Of a stretch of DNA of 64,000 nucleotides, positions 11,243 through 18,465 are shown in pieces. The DNA is from Thermoplasmata archaeon (lineage in GTDB: Archaea > Thermoplasmatota > E2 > JACPAO01 > JAHFTW01). Location: contig JAXDQS010000006.1 of the NCBI GenBank assembly GCA_034667725.1, positions 1 through 64,000 of the forward strand, in the 5' to 3' direction. Numbering within the stretch: the stretch's first letter is position 1; each line of letters starts with the position of its first letter. The notes under the pieces are model-generated. The model searched no databases. It saw nothing but the letters and a program-made list of their open reading frames with translations, and was not told the origin of the DNA. The position numbers and the translations under genes are program-made.

Positions 11243-13840
11243 CTACGCCTTCGGCTGCTTGCCCTTCTTCGGCCCGGAGGCGTTCTTGCCCTCGATGTCG
11301 GCGGCCGCGATGTCGCGCTTGGGCTGCGTCGTCCAGACGGACTCGTGCTCCATCTTGACCTCGAACTCGGTCTGGCCGGGGTTGGAGAGGTCGGCGGCGT
11401 CGCGCTCCTCGCGGTCGAGCTGCGTCTCGTAGGCCTCGGCGTCGGCGGCGCTGCGCATCTTGGGCAGCTCCTTGCGCTCCCAGGCCAGCTTGGCCTCGTA
11501 GGTGTCGACGTCGGCGGCGCTGCGCATCTTGGGCAGCTCGCGGCCTTCCTTGGCGATGCGGGCCTCGTAGGACTCGACGTCCGCCGCGGACTGGAGCTTG
11601 GGCATCTCGCGGTGGTCGCGGGACAGCTTGGCCTCGATGGCTTCGCCGTCGGTGACGTTGCGGAGCTTCGGCAGCGGCTTGGCCTCGGCGTCGCGCTTGG
11701 CGTGGATGGACTCGCCGTCGGTGACGTTGCGCAGCCTGGGCAGCGGCTTGGCCTCGGCGTCGCGGCGGGCCTCGATGGGCTCGGTGTCCGTGACGTTGCG
11801 CAGCCTGGGCAGCGGCTTGGCCTCGGCGTCGCGGCGGGCCTCGAGGGCGCCGTCGGTGACGTTGCGCAGCTTGGGCAGCGGCTTGGCTTCGGCGTCCTGG
11901 CGGGTCTCCAGGGCGTCGTCGGTGACGTTGCGCAGCTTGGGCAGCGGCTTGGCCTCGGCGTCCTGGCGCGTCTCCAGGGAGTCGTCGGAGACGTTGCGGA
12001 GCTTCGGCATCACCTTGTGCTCGGAGTCGCGGCGGGCCTCGACGGCCTCGTCGGTGACGTTGCGAAGCTTCGGGAGCGGCTTGGCCTCGGCGTCGCGGCG
12101 GGCCTCGACGGCCCCGTCGGTGACGTTGCGGAGCTTCGGCATCACCTTGTGCTCCGAGTCGCGGCGGGCCTCCAGGGCGCCGTCGGTGACGTTGCGCAGC
12201 TTCGGGAGGGGCTTGGCCTCGGCGTCCTGGCGCGCCTCGACGGTCTCGTCGGCGGCGTTGCGCATCTTGGGCAGCGCCTTCGGCTCGGCGTCGCGGCGGG
12301 CCTCGAAGGCCTGCTCGCCGAAGCGGATGCGGGGGGCGGCGCGGGACTCCTTGTCCTGGCGCGCCTCGACCTCGGTCTCCTGGATCTTGAGCTTGGGGGC
12401 GGAGCGGGTCTCGCGGTCGACGCGGGCCTCGAAGCTGGCCTCGCCGGGCGCGCGCAGCTTGGGCGCCTCGCGGGTCTCGCGGTCCTGGCGGGCCTCGAAC
12501 TTGGCCTCGCCGGGGGCGCGGAACTTGGGAGTGTCGCGGTGCTCGCGGTCGACGCGGGCCTCGATGGCGGAGTCGGCGGCGTTGCGCATCTTCGGGGCGT
12601 CGCGGGCCTCACGGTCGAGGCGGGTCTCGAAGTGCGCGCCGGCCAGGGCGGACAGGTTGGGGGCAGCGGGGCGCGACTCGGCGTCGCGCCTGACGGCGAC
12701 GGCCTCGTCGCCGGCGCCCTTCATCTTCGGGAGGGCCTTGGGTTCGGCGTCGCGCCGGGTCTCGACGGCCTCGTCGCCGGGGCTGCGCATGCGGGGCAGC
12801 TCGCGGCGCTCCTCGCGGCGCACCTGGGCGTGGCCCTTGGGGAGCGGGTTGGCGGCCGGCTTTGAGGCCTTGGTGGGCAGCTCCAGCGGGGTGGCGGCGC
12901 CCAAGACCTCGGCGACCTTGTCCATGGAGGACTTGGCCAGCTCGGAGCTCTGGGCGTCCGACTTGACGGCGAACTCGTCGGCGTCGGCCGGCGAGACGAT
13001 GCGGAACTCCTCCTTCTCGTCCTTCGACAGCTTGACCTCGAAGTCGTCGGTGTCGGCGGGGGAGCGGATCTTGCCTTGGCTGGCCTCGGCGGCGTCCTTG
13101 CGGACCTCGAAGCCGCCGGCGGCGGTCTTGCCGGTCCCGGTGGGGACGTGGTGGGGCTTGGGGGCGCGGATGTCCACCGTGCCGGCGTCGCCCGCGAGGG
13201 GCGCCGTGGGCTTGGCGCCGGGCTTCTGGACCTCGAAGTCGCCGGCGTCGAAGCCGGCGGCCTGGGCGGCGGTCTTGGCCTTCGGGGCCTTGACCTCGAA
13301 GGCGGCCTCGTCGACGTCCTCGTGCTGCACGCGGGCGGCACGGGGCTTCTGGACCTCGACGTCGCCCAGGCTCGCCAGCTTCGCGGCGGCGTCCTTGGCG
13401 GGCGTCGAGGAGTCCGGCACGTCCGGGCGGTCCACCGCGGCCGCCGCCATCGCCGCAAGGCGCTTGGCGGACAGGGCCGCGGGGGCTGCCGGCTTCGGGG
13501 CCGGGGCGGGCTCGGGCTCCGGCGCGGCGGGGAGGGTCACGGACTTGCCGTGCTTCTTCTCCTCGGCCTCGACGGCGGCGTCGATCTCGGCAAACAGCTC
13601 CTCGTCGGAGATGGTCTTGACGTTGGGCTTGGGGCCAGGGGCGGCGCCGCCGCCGGCGGCAAGGTTCACTTTCCCCGTCTTGGGGTCGTACTCCTTGCTG
13701 CCGGCGGAGCCGGACTTGGCCTCGTTGAAGGAGCGGACGGAAACGGCCGCGTCCTCTTCATCTGTGACCTTGGCGCTGAAGGCCGCCATGCGGGCCGCCC
13801 TCTGCTTTGCATCCTCGGAGGAGGGGGTGGGTTTGCTCAT
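11243..13840 (-). CDS. 865-aa charged, probably disordered cytoplasmic tandem-repeat protein
   Basis: No signal peptide or TM; ~22 repeats of 21-23 aa like ALEARRDAEAKPLPKLRNVTDG; ~8 upstream FEVKxP-like motifs. Confidence 0.85.
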   Translation of the reverse strand: MSKPTPSSEDAKQRAARMAAFSAKVTDEEDAAVSVRSFNEAKSGSAGSKEYDPKTGKVNLAAGGGAAPGPKPNVKTISDEELFAEIDAAVEAEEKKHGKSVTLPAAPEPEPAPAPKPAAPAALSAKRLAAMAAAAVDRPDVPDSSTPAKDAAAKLASLGDVEVQKPRAARVQHEDVDEAAFEVKAPKAKTAAQAAGFDAGDFEVQKPGAKPTAPLAGDAGTVDIRAPKPHHVPTGTGKTAAGGFEVRKDAAEASQGKIRSPADTDDFEVKLSKDEKEEFRIVSPADADEFAVKSDAQSSELAKSSMDKVAEVLGAATPLELPTKASKPAANPLPKGHAQVRREERRELPRMRSPGDEAVETRRDAEPKALPKMKGAGDEAVAVRRDAESRPAAPNLSALAGAHFETRLDREARDAPKMRNAADSAIEARVDREHRDTPKFRAPGEAKFEARQDRETREAPKLRAPGEASFEARVDRETRSAPKLKIQETEVEARQDKESRAAPRIRFGEQAFEARRDAEPKALPKMRNAADETVEARQDAEAKPLPKLRNVTDGALEARRDSEHKVMPKLRNVTDGAVEARRDAEAKPLPKLRNVTDEAVEARRDSEHKVMPKLRNVSDDSLETRQDAEAKPLPKLRNVTDDALETRQDAEAKPLPKLRNVTDGALEARRDAEAKPLPRLRNVTDTEPIEARRDAEAKPLPRLRNVTDGESIHAKRDAEAKPLPKLRNVTDGEAIEAKLSRDHREMPKLQSAADVESYEARIAKEGRELPKMRSAADVDTYEAKLAWERKELPKMRSAADAEAYETQLDREERDAADLSNPGQTEFEVKMEHESVWTTQPKRDIAAADIEGKNASGPKKGKQPKA
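11370..12830 (-). repeat. Coding tandem repeat, 63-69 nt unit, ~22 copies
   Basis: Recurrent + strand string GTCGGTGACGTTGCGCAGCTTGGGCAGCGGCTTGGCCTCGGCGTC; central copies are most conserved. Confidence 0.9.
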
Positions 13841-13866: not shown

Positions 13867-14940
13867 TCAGTTGGAGCCGCCCTTCTTGACCTTGGGGAGA
13901 GGCTGTTCGTCCTCGATGACGACGGTGCTGCCGCGCTTGGGCAGGCTGGCCGCCTTCGCGACCTTGGCCGCGGTGTCGGCGGGCGCCTTGCCGTTGCGGG
14001 CCGGGGCCGCGGGGGCCGCCGGGGCCGCGCGGGTCGCGGCGGCGGCCGGCTTGTTGCGGCCGGTCAGCGCGTTCCAGAAGCGGCGCCAGAAGCCGACCTT
14101 CGGGGTGTAGAGGGTCGGGTTGGCGGCCTTCTGCTTGCGGAAGGCGATGAGGGCGCGGGTGGACTCGTCGGCCCACTCGCCGGGGAGGGCGCCGCGCTTG
14201 TTGGGGCGGACGCCCGAGAGCTGGGCGACGCCTTCGTCGACCTGGGCGGCGTCCACCTGGACGACACGGGCCTTGCCGAGGCCGCCGATGACGGCGCCGG
14301 CGCCGAGGGAGTCGGGGATGTTGACCTTCATCGCGCTGGAGTTGGCGGAGGAGCCGACCAGCTCGACGCCGAACTTCTTCATGGCGTACTCGATGTCGCG
14401 CTCGACGACCCAGTCGGGGACCTCGTAGCCGGGGCCGTAGGCCTCGTCGTCGTCCTCGGACTCCTTGGTGGCGGTGCCCTGCAGGCGGCCGAGGTAGTAG
14501 CCGACGACGCTGGAGATGATGGCCGCGAGCATGAAGCCCAGGCCGATCACGAACAGGCCGACGTCGAGCCAGGCGTAGTCGGTCTTGCCGCCGCGGGCGC
14601 TCACGAAGATCTCGTTCGGGTAGTGGACCACGAACAGGATGGTCGCCATCAGGGTGGCGCTGAAGCCGGCCCAGGACGCGACCCGGAGGCCGGTCTTGGT
14701 GGGCAGGGCCACCGTGATGCCCAGGAAGAGGCTGGGCAGCGACAGGGCGCCGAGGGGCAGCGCGACGCGCCGCCAGGCAATCTGGTCGGTGGCCGGCTGG
14801 CCCAGCGAGATGAAGAAGAGAGTCAAGGCAGCGAGACCGAGGAGGACACCCAGGCCCAGCAGGAAGAATCCTGCTTGGAGCTGGCCCTTGGAGGTCTTGG
14901 TGCCGAACAAAGCGCTGTATCGGTTCTCAAGTTCTGACAT
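13867..14940 (-). CDS. Membrane protein: 4 N-terminal TM helices plus a cytoplasmic domain (possibly DUF7139-like)
   Basis: Four hydrophobic segments with FVVHYP, an acidic linker, and a basic amphipathic GFWRRFWNALTG segment. DUF7139 likeness is recalled, not verified. Confidence 0.75.
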   Translation of the reverse strand: MSELENRYSALFGTKTSKGQLQAGFFLLGLGVLLGLAALTLFFISLGQPATDQIAWRRVALPLGALSLPSLFLGITVALPTKTGLRVASWAGFSATLMATILFVVHYPNEIFVSARGGKTDYAWLDVGLFVIGLGFMLAAIISSVVGYYLGRLQGTATKESEDDDEAYGPGYEVPDWVVERDIEYAMKKFGVELVGSSANSSAMKVNIPDSLGAGAVIGGLGKARVVQVDAAQVDEGVAQLSGVRPNKRGALPGEWADESTRALIAFRKQKAANPTLYTPKVGFWRRFWNALTGRNKPAAAATRAAPAAPAAPARNGKAPADTAAKVAKAASLPKRGSTVVIEDEQPLPKVKKGGSN

Positions 14941-14979
14941 GGAGCGATCCTCGGTGAGGCGGGGGAAGGTAAGACCAAC

Positions 14980-15040
14980 CAGGGGGGCTGGGGGTGAGTG
15001 GGAAGGAAGGAGCGGGGAAGGGGAGAGGGAAGGAGGTGGA
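14980..15040 (-). terminator. Pyrimidine-rich tract downstream of the actin gene (possible terminator or attenuator)
   Basis: Minus strand reads CCTCCTTCCTCTCCCTTCCCCGCTCCTTCCTTCCC just after the stop. Confidence 0.4.
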
Positions 15041-15072
15041 GGCCCGCACGCGGCGGGGTTCAGCCTTGCGGC

Positions 15073-16095
15073 TTACTTCTTGCTGTCGACGGCGACGAGC
15101 TCCTCGAGGGTCTCGGCCTCCTCGGCGCGCGCGGCGACGAGGGTGCCCATGGCCACCGAGTAGAGCGGGCTGCGGGCCATCTTGACCTTCGAGATCTCGA
15201 AGGGCAGGTTGGCCTCGTAGATGCGGCGCTCGAACAGGTCCTTGAAGCCCTTGCACGAGGCCGTGCCGCCGGTGATGGCGACCGGGATCGTGAGGCCTTC
15301 CTCGACCTTCGCCTTCGCAAGCTCGCGCTTGAGGGTGCGGATGGCGTACTCGACGAGGTTGTCGTAGTAGATGGTCAGGGCGCTCTGGACCTCGCCGGAG
15401 GGGTTCTCCGGGTTGATCTCGAACTCGCGCTCCTTGATCGCGGTGACGCGGTCCTTGGAGTGGCCGGTGGCCTCAGCGACCTGCTGGTCGATCCAGTCGC
15501 CGCCGCGGGCGACCGCGGTGGTCATGACCGGGAGACCGTAGTGCGAGACGCACATGTTGGTCATGCCGGCGCCGAACGAGACGCCCAGGCCGGTGAACTG
15601 GTTGTCGGCCAGCTCGGAGTAGACGACGGCCATGCCCTCGTTGATCACGCGGGGGGTGTAGTCCAGCTTGCGCAGGATCGACTCGATGGTCTTCTGGTGG
15701 TACAGGACGTCCTGGTTGGGGGCGTCGACCGGGCGGGCCGGCGAGGTGTAGTAGAGAATCTCGCCAGACTCCTTCGGGGCGCCGACCAGGCGCTCGATGA
15801 TCAAGCGGATCATCGGGATGGCCGACTTCTCGTCGCGCGACAGGATGCCCTTCTGCATGGGGCGGCGGGTCGCGGTGTTGAAGATGTTCGCGAAGTTGAG
15901 GGCGTCCTCACCGACGATGAACACCTGGTTGTCCTTCTTGATGTACAGCACGTCGCTGCGGGCCAGCATCTTCTCGGCGACGTCGGAGTACTCAATCTCG
16001 ACGAAGGAGTTGCGCTGCTGCGTGAGCGTCGTCTTGTCACCGTGCCTCTCGGCGGCGATGATGTTCATCGTGCCGACGTCCAATCCCTTTGCCAT
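15073..16095 (-). CDS. volA: Actin-fold ATPase, volactin-like
   Basis: Phosphate-1 GLDVGT, connect-1 INEG, phosphate-2 SFGAGMT, RGGDWID, adenosine ITGGT. N-terminus MAKGLDVGTMNI...QQRNSFVEIEYSD matches my recollection of haloarchaeal volactin. GGAGG RBS at 16103-16107. Confidence 0.88.
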   Translation of the reverse strand: MAKGLDVGTMNIIAAERHGDKTTLTQQRNSFVEIEYSDVAEKMLARSDVLYIKKDNQVFIVGEDALNFANIFNTATRRPMQKGILSRDEKSAIPMIRLIIERLVGAPKESGEILYYTSPARPVDAPNQDVLYHQKTIESILRKLDYTPRVINEGMAVVYSELADNQFTGLGVSFGAGMTNMCVSHYGLPVMTTAVARGGDWIDQQVAEATGHSKDRVTAIKEREFEINPENPSGEVQSALTIYYDNLVEYAIRTLKRELAKAKVEEGLTIPVAITGGTASCKGFKDLFERRIYEANLPFEISKVKMARSPLYSVAMGTLVAARAEEAETLEELVAVDSKK

Positions 16096-16410: not shown

Positions 16411-17400
16411 ATGGGCCGCACCGGGTTCAAGGAGGTCAAGCAGCCGCGCCGCAAGGCCGGCGACGAACCCGAGAAGGCCGCCGCGCCGACGCCTTCCTCT
16501 CCTGTTGCGGCGGCCCCCCCCAAGGCCACCGACGCCACCCGCCGCATCCTCGAGGCGCTGCGGGACGACGACGTCGTGGTGATCACCGAGCCGCTGCACC
16601 CGCGCCACGGCCGCGCCATCGTGCTCGACCGCGACCACCGTGAAATCTCCAGTGTCGCCCAGCAGGCGCCCAGCGGCACCGACGCGAACCTGGCCGGCGC
16701 CCCTTCGATTCCGCCGGTTCCGCCCATCCCGCCGCACGCGGCCCCGCCCAAGCCGACCGCGCCGCTTTCTTCTCCTCGCAAGAAAACAATCCAGGCAACC
16801 GCGCTCCAACAGGAGGCGGCGGCCCCCACCGCGCGCACGCTGCAGCAGGCCGAGGCCGCCCCCGCTCCCGGCGCCGCAAGGCGCGCCGCGGAGCTGGACG
16901 GCGGCGCCATCGCGCTGGCGCGCAGCGTCATCGCCGAGGCCGTGTACCGCGAGTTCGGCGCCGGCGGCTCCAAGGTCCAGCAGCCCAAAGGCATGAACTT
17001 CCTGCTGCACCCGCGCCGCCCCGCCGGGGTGGTGCGCACCCAGCACAACCTGATGCTGCCCCTTCCGTCGGGCATGGCCACCAGCCACCACGCCGACGTG
17101 GTCGTCGAGCTGGAGAACGGCGCCGTGCTGATGCTCGACGTCGTGCCCAGCAGCGTGTCGGTGACGGAGCTGAAGGCGCGCGCGTTCGACGCGCTGCAGC
17201 TGCGCCGCCTCGACCTGGCGTTCTCCATCCTGGTGTTCGTGCGCGCCCCAGGAGGGATGCCGCAGGAGCAGGCCGAGGCCCTCGGGCACGGCTACGACTT
17301 CCACTTCGGCATCGCGGAGGATCAGGTCCACTCGGAGCAGTCGTTCGCGGCGCTGCGGGCGCGAATCGGGTCCTGGCTCGACGCGAACGGGGCGAAGTAG
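16411..17400 (+). CDS. Pro/Ala-rich N-terminus plus a degenerate GxxExxY / PD-(D/E)XK-like C-terminal domain
   Basis: VYREFGAG..VRTQ..HHADVVVE..VLMLDV..FSILVF aligns by eye with the GxxExxY pattern VHRELGPG..VERQ..YRxDLLVE..VIVELK..GLLINF. Start uncertain (in-frame ATGs at 16321, 16333, 16411). Confidence 0.6.
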   Translation: MGRTGFKEVKQPRRKAGDEPEKAAAPTPSSPVAAAPPKATDATRRILEALRDDDVVVITEPLHPRHGRAIVLDRDHREISSVAQQAPSGTDANLAGAPSIPPVPPIPPHAAPPKPTAPLSSPRKKTIQATALQQEAAAPTARTLQQAEAAPAPGAARRAAELDGGAIALARSVIAEAVYREFGAGGSKVQQPKGMNFLLHPRRPAGVVRTQHNLMLPLPSGMATSHHADVVVELENGAVLMLDVVPSSVSVTELKARAFDALQLRRLDLAFSILVFVRAPGGMPQEQAEALGHGYDFHFGIAEDQVHSEQSFAALRARIGSWLDANGAK

Positions 17401-17868: not shown

Positions 17869-18465
17869 CTAGGCCTTGCGGCGGCGCAGCAGGAGGAGGC
17901 CTGCCAGGACGGCCACCAGCAGCATGGGCAGCTCGAAGCCCGGCACCGGCTCGTCGGCCTCGGTGGTGGTGTTGATGCCCCCGAGGGGGTAGAACTCGAC
18001 GTAGTAGTCCGCGGCGGCCGTGGTGGCCGGGGCGCCCTGGAAGACGGCGAGGCTGCAGGTCATGGCGGTCGCAGTGGCGGTGACGTTGACGGGGACCTCG
18101 GTCTCCTGGGCCACGACGCCGGCGTCGACCACGATGCTGGCGCTGAAGGGGTAGCTGGCGCCGCCGTTGGCGGTCTCGGTGGGGCCGACGGTGGCGGTGA
18201 AGGTGCGGGGCAGGACCTCGACGGTGGCGTTCTGGGCCTCGGCCGCGACGGTGATGGTGACGGTCTCGCTGCCGCCGGCGCAGGTGTTCTCGGCGACCTG
18301 GTAGGTGACCTGGATCTCCTGGGTGTGCTGGGTGCCGTTGGCGACGATGCGCTCGGGGGCGCCGGAGATGAGGAGGGTCGCGTTGCCCTCGAGGGGGACC
18401 TGGGCGGCCGCGGGGGCGACAAGCAGGAGGGCGACAAGCAGGAGAGGGAGGATCGGGCGCGTCAT
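17869..18465 (-). CDS. Small PGF-CTERM surface protein
   Basis: Signal peptide; C-terminal VPGFE-hydrophobic-RRRK. Confidence 0.88.
   Translation of the reverse strand: MTRPILPLLLVALLLVAPAAAQVPLEGNATLLISGAPERIVANGTQHTQEIQVTYQVAENTCAGGSETVTITVAAEAQNATVEVLPRTFTATVGPTETANGGASYPFSASIVVDAGVVAQETEVPVNVTATATAMTCSLAVFQGAPATTAAADYYVEFYPLGGINTTTEADEPVPGFELPMLLVAVLAGLLLLRRRKA

Follow-up and report, generated by a model that had tools for sequence, protein, structure and literature searches.

The 64,000-nucleotide stretch of Thermoplasmata archaeon DNA analyzed here (the window, by which we mean this whole stretch) carries a cassette of three genes on one strand, in the order volactin, CdpA-like membrane protein, and a large protein built of tandem 22-residue units that is the subject of this work. 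The cassette and the parts of the repeat protein are laid out as follows, with amino acid positions counted from the start of the repeat protein:

15073..16095, minus strand: volactin, an actin-like ATPase (PF25216, E 2.4e-121)
13867..14940, minus strand: CdpA-like membrane protein with a DUF7139 match (E 7e-24)
11243..13840, minus strand: repeat-protein gene, 865 amino acids in a single open reading frame, stop codon included
13421..13840, minus strand: conserved N-terminal region, amino acids 1-140
12953..13369, minus strand: upstream zone of ~8 degenerate units ([FV]-E-V-[KQR] ... P-K/x ... SPAD), amino acids 158-296
12845..12955, minus strand: conserved non-repeat segment KSDAQSSELAKS..KV.E (predicted helix at amino acids 296-315), then a Pro/Lys linker
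11396..12844, minus strand: main array of 21 units of 22-23 amino acids, amino acids 333-815, predicted to be disordered
11657..12250, minus strand: nine near-identical units with P(K/R)LRNV(T/S)D endings, amino acids 531-728
11246..11395, minus strand: conserved C-terminal motif NPGQ.EF.VK.EHES.WT..(K/R)RD with a short Lys-rich tail, amino acids 816-865

The first of these genes, which the initial annotation had already taken for a volactin, is a genuine one; translation probably begins at the ATG at 16095, which matches the start in the orthologues. The protein is ~60% identical to haloarchaeal volactins, shows a weak MamK-family match, and lies nearer to MreB and MamK than to eukaryotic actin. 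The CdpA-like protein combines a hydrophobic N-terminal domain with a cytoplasmic C-terminal half (4 transmembrane segments are given for CdpA-like proteins in the CdpA paper, PMC12126565), and the stop of its gene lies 26 nucleotides upstream of the start of the repeat gene. CdpA itself is an FtsZ-ring anchor, and its CdpA-like paralogue HVO_2016 of Haloferax adjoins the volactin HVO_2015, a proximity that has been noted as a hint of common function with cytoskeletal systems (PMC12126565). Volactin filaments of Haloferax span the cytoplasm with their tips touching the membrane, and binding factors of unknown nature have been postulated for them (PMC10869688). Our literature search brought up nothing on volactin in Thermoplasmatota or on a repeat protein beside volactin.

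Two observations identify the repeat open reading frame as a real coding frame: its codon positions follow the pattern of the neighboring genes (GC content of 0.97 at third positions and higher at first than at second positions; lower at first than at second positions in the antisense frame), and its orthologues, at 691 to 956 amino acids, keep the frame and gain or lose units in-frame. The predicted product has an isoelectric point of 6.2 and a grand average of hydropathy of -0.93, and neither a signal peptide nor a transmembrane segment was found in its 865 residues; it is a cytoplasmic protein. The nine near-identical units (11657..12250, minus strand) each carry an N-V-T sequon, which is probably meaningless because the protein bears no export signal. 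No Pfam or NCBIfam model exists for the repeat family, and searches of the protein against both collections returned nothing above cut-off. A DUF3248 match (24.9 bits at a cut-off of 27, over 12 residues) was dismissed as noise from the repeats, and relatives of the repeat protein in databases are named "hypothetical protein".

When units are anchored on P-[KR]-[LMFI], 21 of them follow one another at a spacing of 21 to 23 residues between amino acids 333 and 815, and in the DNA, Tandem Repeats Finder identifies 10 copies of a 66-bp period with 82% matches and a score of 790, flanked by further arrays of 66 or 69 bp, which is a tandem repeat far above chance level. Each unit contains a charged segment of the type hEARRDAE and closes on a proline-led ending, either P(K/R)LRNV as in the block of nine, which is a recent local expansion, or PKMR(N/S)A, PKFRAP, PKLRAP, and similar forms. 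In the zone between amino acids 158 and 296, a motif scan and direct reading located about eight [FV]-[EDA]-[VI]-[KQR] motifs, and the orthologue alignment identifies these as degenerate versions of the array's unit (e.g., SPTEDEFSVKMDKEDKPAPKIQSPAE in orthologues); the two zones therefore form one repeat family of ~29 units in total. The initial annotation had described this part of the DNA, at 11370..13380, as ~22 repeats of 22 amino acids in which a charged segment precedes a P-K-(L/M)-R ending, with ~8 (D/E)-F-E-V-(K/Q)-like motifs upstream. That description was accurate: its coordinates span both the array and the upstream zone, and the 21 anchored and ~8 degenerate units lie in one reading frame. 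Charges in the array are balanced, with 104 Lys and Arg residues vs 102 Asp and Glu residues.

A logo built on 157 units, drawn from nine orthologues, yields the family consensus x-x-PHI-E-A-[RK]-x-D-x-E-x-[KR]-x-L-P-[KR]-PHI-[RK]-[SN]-[PA]-[AG]-[DE], where PHI is a hydrophobic residue and the strongest positions are P15 (92%), K/R16 (88%), PHI17 (97%), S/N19 (80%), D/E22 (96%), and D8 (74%). Overall, units are only ~31-35% identical to one another (47% for adjacent units), and their anchored number varies from 13 to 23 between species. Residue class is kept between species at a rate of 0.73 at nine motif positions vs 0.28 at the others, so that the units look like selected linear motifs and not like filler, and the pattern of conservation suggests that purifying selection acts on the unit motif. 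The structure prediction points the same way. AlphaFold2 gives the whole protein a mean predicted local distance difference test score (pLDDT) of 42, with values below 50 for 690 of 865 residues, and models the array as coil at a pLDDT of ~33, although the alignment of 9 sequences is too shallow to exclude a fold; an ESM Atlas look-up of the array gave no usable match. Values of 60-80 are reached only in the N-terminal region (a predicted helix and small sheet at amino acids 7-60 and helices at 79-96 and 125-136), in helix 296-315, and in the C-terminal helices. Taken together, the units appear to have the character of short linear motifs under selection within a disordered chain, and not that of a folded repeat domain.

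A folded alternative did surface in the searches. A phmmer comparison with PDB sequences aligned amino acids 533-726, which fall in the block of nine near-identical units, with two leucine-rich repeat (LRR) structures, the Roco protein of Chlorobium (LRR domain, 5il7) at E 2e-13 and internalin A at E 8e-6, both of which have the same period of 22, and the array could on this basis be viewed as a degenerate 22-residue LRR solenoid of the internalin or Roco type. We rejected this view as most improbable. The alignment rests only on PL..L..(V/L)T(D/E), and pairs the Asn of LRRs with Arg and their core Ile/Leu with Asp/Ala; the match itself is weaker for one orthologue (2e-7) and absent for another (L014). 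Furthermore, a unit offers only 2-3 hydrophobic positions (157-unit logo), compared to the LxxLxLxxN/CxL core of LRRs, the coil is predicted at low confidence, and no Pfam LRR match was found in the repeat protein, four orthologues, or two short relatives. Judged by these mismatches, the resemblance to 22-residue LRR structures is a coincidence of period.

The possibility raised by the initial annotation was another one, namely that the repeats are WH2/beta-thymosin-like actin-binding motifs. Membership in these families fails: hmmscan against Pfam-A found neither WH2 (PF02205) nor thymosin (PF01290) in the repeat protein at E values up to 1, nor did it find them in four orthologues and two short relatives at E values up to 0.1. 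The annotation's own caveat that a hydrophobic WH2 helix was not evident proved apt, as PHI3 is the sole hydrophobic position before the proline in the 157 units and the rest of that part consists of E, A, R, D, and K. As for an ending of the LKK(T/V) type, a PHI17-[RK]18-[SN]19-[PAV]20 element does follow the helix-prone segment and is preceded by a conserved P-K, but L-R-N-V as such, present in nine units of the window, is a variant of the source species, the family consensus being M-R-S-P. A functional likeness to WH2 motifs is conceivable. In one form of such a likeness, the protein would be a nucleating or sequestering factor like the tandem WH2 arrays of Spire, VopL/VopF, and Cobl, with each unit holding one volactin monomer and the array aligning them into a seed. 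The units are tandem, disordered, and at 22 residues within the size range of WH2 motifs, their basic PHI-[RK]-x-x element comes after a short helix-prone charged segment, and the gene sits in a volactin cassette. Nevertheless, we consider a nucleator very unlikely given the missing profile match, the single hydrophobic position in the "helix" part, and a partner that is closer to MreB and MamK than to eukaryotic actin; in addition, known nucleators have 3-4 motifs and not 20 or more.

The most conserved parts of the protein are its two ends. The N-terminal region contains the motif RAARMAAFSAKV..EE..VSVRSFNEA..G..K.YDPKTG.V (a predicted helix and small beta-sheet) and also contains an acidic helix, DEELFAEIDAAVEAEE, as well as LSAKRLAAMAAAA. 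When a profile of the nine orthologues was run against 1.84 billion representative proteins, only 54 matches came back. True matches to the repeats were fragments from the same clade, and eight others were set aside as unrelated repeat proteins matched via period or composition. About 30 matches are short proteins of 230-335 amino acids that lack the array and have only the first N-terminal motif in common with the long form (RMAAFSxKV...VAVRS(F/W)...PKTG). This RMAAFS-motif family, the "third gene" family of volactin cassettes, is defined in the present analysis. BLASTP aligns the repeat protein with the short protein of locus L026 at 56% identity over 61 amino acids, profile searches agree, and the repeat protein descends from this short-protein family, with which it shares the N-terminal mini-domain. 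In a model of the short family, the mini-domain reaches a pLDDT of 79-88 and FGxVE(I/L)xQ motifs form beta-hairpins; a fold search with this model against 48,161 PDB chains found nothing above Z 3. The short relatives (P0022-P0054) begin with a Lys/Ala/Pro-rich basic tail of 40-90 amino acids that resembles histone H1. The long form has no such tail and carries only the short Lys-rich stretch at its C terminus.

The genomic distribution of the long form is narrow and its context is constant. In a survey of 41 related genomes, the full-length repeat protein was found in 10, comprising the source genome and 9 of the 12 genomes of the same genus, with volactin and the CdpA-like gene immediately before it in all 10; nine GenBank loci show the same gene order. 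In one further genome of the genus, the contig stops within the CdpA-like gene, and in two genomes that are 65-76% complete neither volactin nor the repeat protein was seen. The initial annotation had named a repeat occurring mainly in genomes without volactin as the result that would speak against its proposal; that is not what we find, because all 10 genomes that hold the repeat also hold the cassette. The short relatives extend the association: in both loci that hold volactin, L026 and L037 (a 50-kb metagenome contig), the short protein takes third place behind volactin and the CdpA-like gene, whereas those of G029 and L038 are not placed in this way. By this distribution, the repeat protein is a genus-level elaboration of a rarer third volactin component that is restricted to Thermoplasmatota. 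Sequencing runs holding this stretch are soil metagenomes, and one near-identical locus comes from groundwater.

The other two genes of the cassette are arranged differently elsewhere. A CdpA-like/volactin pair is present in 77 of 80 haloarchaeal loci, where the CdpA-like gene immediately precedes volactin in 76 cases and lies downstream of it in 1, so that the order of the source genus is inverted relative to the large majority of these loci (L041-L120). Some sister genera or families have a second volactin paralogue in place of the third gene, and tandem duplications occur in three genomes from other families of the order (G028, G029, and G030, corresponding to loci L033, L031, and L032), either as CdpA-like, volactin, CdpA-like, volactin or as volactin, CdpA-like, second volactin paralogue; in G030 the copy seems to be split. 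The CdpA-like proteins of the genus contain an amphipathic helix, GFWRRFWNALTGR, that aligns with the conserved C-terminal helix ending haloarchaeal CdpA-like proteins (..LLERLR.LV.RN) and is followed by an extra tail of ~45 amino acids ending in KGKT(V/I)VI(E/D)DE or K-G-K/S-T-V-V-I-E-D-E. This tail was not found in other aligned CdpA-like proteins, and its co-occurrence with the long repeat protein is weak evidence because it amounts to a single evolutionary event.

Gene order is also the sole direct tie between the repeat protein and volactin. It could therefore be argued that the two have no functional link and that a charged disordered protein with another role, for instance in binding nucleoid, RNA, or envelope or as a condensate scaffold, happens to lie beside the cassette. 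One of the short relatives is encoded away from volactin, and the H1-like tail of this family could bind DNA or acidic lipids. However, an order kept in all 10 genomes of the genus that carry the gene and in two distant lineages, together with the 26-nucleotide spacing, argues for co-expression and shared function, and we regard such an unconnected role as improbable.

Our tentatively favored interpretation, held at a little less than even confidence, makes the repeat protein a multivalent accessory or adaptor that serves, in this lineage, as the third component of a module with volactin and the CdpA-like membrane protein, its units docking either on successive volactin protomers or on another module component present in many copies. 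Operon-like linkage, disorder, multivalency, and selection on the motif are the observations from which we infer the rest of the mechanism. Each unit would be a short linear motif that folds upon binding, and the number of equivalent docking sites on one molecule would range from 13 to ~29 according to species. The likeliest ligand would be the volactin filament, each unit contacting a single protomer or a pair of them, and the conserved N- and C-terminal motifs might link the protein with the CdpA-like membrane protein or a filament end. In this manner, the repeat protein may stabilize, bundle, measure, or tether filaments, and it is a good candidate for binding or organizing those of volactin. 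Protomers of actin-like filaments are spaced ~5 nm apart along a strand, a distance that a 22-residue unit spans only if it is mostly extended; the two prolines per unit fit this, if tightly. A more specific and, in our view, rather doubtful version extends the logic of nebulin or tandem WH2 arrays to a prokaryote: if one unit docked on each volactin protomer, the protein could bind along the sides of filaments as a ruler or stabilizer, and its number of repeats (13 to ~29) would determine how long or how stable the filaments are between their anchor points at the membrane. We know of no motif-array filament-binding protein for an archaeal actin outside the Asgard archaea.

Several points weigh against a multivalent volactin-binding accessory. 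Neither a long nor a short relative was found within 6 kb of volactin in the 80 haloarchaeal loci, and no such third gene lies beside volactin in six volactin-bearing genomes of sister genera and families (G015, G017, G026, and G028-G030), so that volactin evidently does not need the repeat family; the short relative of G029, a genome with volactin, does not adjoin it. As far as the sequences tell, the array lacks a conserved hydrophobic helix of the type that docks into the clefts of actin-family proteins, and a repeat number ranging from 13 to 23 anchored units suits a spacer as well as a binder. Finally, the best-studied analogue, MamJ, binds its actin-like partner MamK via its termini and has a hypervariable repeat domain that is dispensable (PMC3905215).

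The last point leads to the main alternative, which we consider possible, if on the unlikely side, in which the repeat protein is an adaptor of the MamJ type: the N-terminal mini-domain and the C-terminal motif would bind volactin, the CdpA-like protein, or both, and the array would be a hypervariable charged spacer or entropic bristle that sets distances or keeps filaments apart. In accordance with this, the termini are the best conserved parts and the only ones with some predicted structure, repeat number and sequence differ strongly between species, and the short relatives work without an array. Yet a pure spacer would not be expected to keep nine positions (P, K/R, PHI, S/N, D/E, D, PHI) in units that are otherwise ~70% different, and it is these many apparently selected linear motifs that point to multivalent binding.

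Whichever way the units work, synteny makes the repeat gene a concrete and testable candidate for a factor that binds volactin, and it comes from Thermoplasmatota of soil and groundwater. If its units bind volactin, they would provide a simple system for the control of an actin-like filament by a motif array, and short-motif arrays beside actin-family filaments would have arisen independently in archaea. Otherwise, the repeat protein would still be a MamJ-like adaptor, and the N-terminal mini-domain family would be a new accessory of volactin modules. Limits on such work are that the hosts are uncultured and that the searched haloarchaeal loci do not contain the repeat family.

Hints of expression come from Logan contigs of RNA libraries, in which uncovered parts are uninformative and carry-over of DNA is possible. 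In four soil studies, such contigs give heavy cover of volactin and thin cover of the CdpA-like gene and the first 500 nucleotides of the repeat gene (e.g., 13355-13792 in run X5), which is at most a hint that the genes are expressed. Volactin and the CdpA-like gene are separated by a C/T-rich spacer of 132 nucleotides (14941..15072) with a GC hairpin, CCCGCCGCGTGCGGG, just past the volactin stop. Contig depth falls ~10-fold across this spacer, though such depth cannot rank genes. On the other side of volactin, a gene of 329 amino acids without Pfam or NCBIfam match runs divergently (16411..17400, plus strand), and a homologue occupies the same divergent position in one other genome of the genus (G001, locus L035). 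Beyond it, a protein of 198 amino acids (17869..18465, minus strand) has a signal-like N-terminal segment and a C-terminal PGF...TM...RRRKA end, with matches below cut-off to Heimdall-CTERM (20.4 bits, cut-off 24) and PGF-CTERM (17.8 bits, cut-off 24.5). Every locus of the genus, as well as L020 and L021, which are more distant, has a homologue on the same strand as volactin and 1.4-2.1 kb upstream of it, and the protein is a possible surface component tied to the volactin locus.

Compared to known systems, the repeat protein invites several analogies. Tandem WH2/beta-thymosin proteins such as Spire, Cobl, and VopL/VopF share with it disordered tandem units of ~20 amino acids, a basic element resembling PHI-K/R-x-V behind a helix-prone part, and a relation to the actin family, here through the neighboring gene; they differ in having 1-4 units vs 21-29, in the prokaryotic type of the actin partner assumed here, and in the amphipathic hydrophobic helix that the repeat units lack. 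Nebulin, with its SDxxYK repeats of ~35 amino acids, and the repeats of tau and MAP2 have been proposed to contact one filament subunit per motif. By analogy, the many short tandem motifs per chain would follow the same logic of a "ruler" or side-stabilizer, with unrelated sequence. Arcadin-2 for crenactin and ParR for ParM are small partners encoded beside prokaryotic actins that dock on them with a short peptide, but each molecule presents one C-terminal helix and not an array, and ParR also binds centromere DNA. CdpA and the CdpA-like proteins (HVO_0739 and HVO_2016) represent the DUF7139 group of the repeat gene's upstream neighbor and not the repeat protein itself, and in the 80 haloarchaeal loci no third gene of the repeat family follows the pair. 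In the MamJ/LimJ system of Magnetospirillum, MamJ is likewise a largely disordered protein with hypervariable tandem repeats, and its gene lies beside that of an actin-like protein. MamJ repeats are 88 or 20 amino acids long, Glu/Pro-rich, and acidic, whereas the units described here have 22 residues, balanced charge, and a P-[KR]-PHI core, and the host here is an archaeon whose cassette includes a CdpA-like membrane protein. Mostly unstructured as it is, MamJ links or regulates the MamK filament at a membrane structure (PMC3905215), and the repeat protein would belong with this known class of disordered repeat-bearing accessories encoded beside prokaryotic actins.

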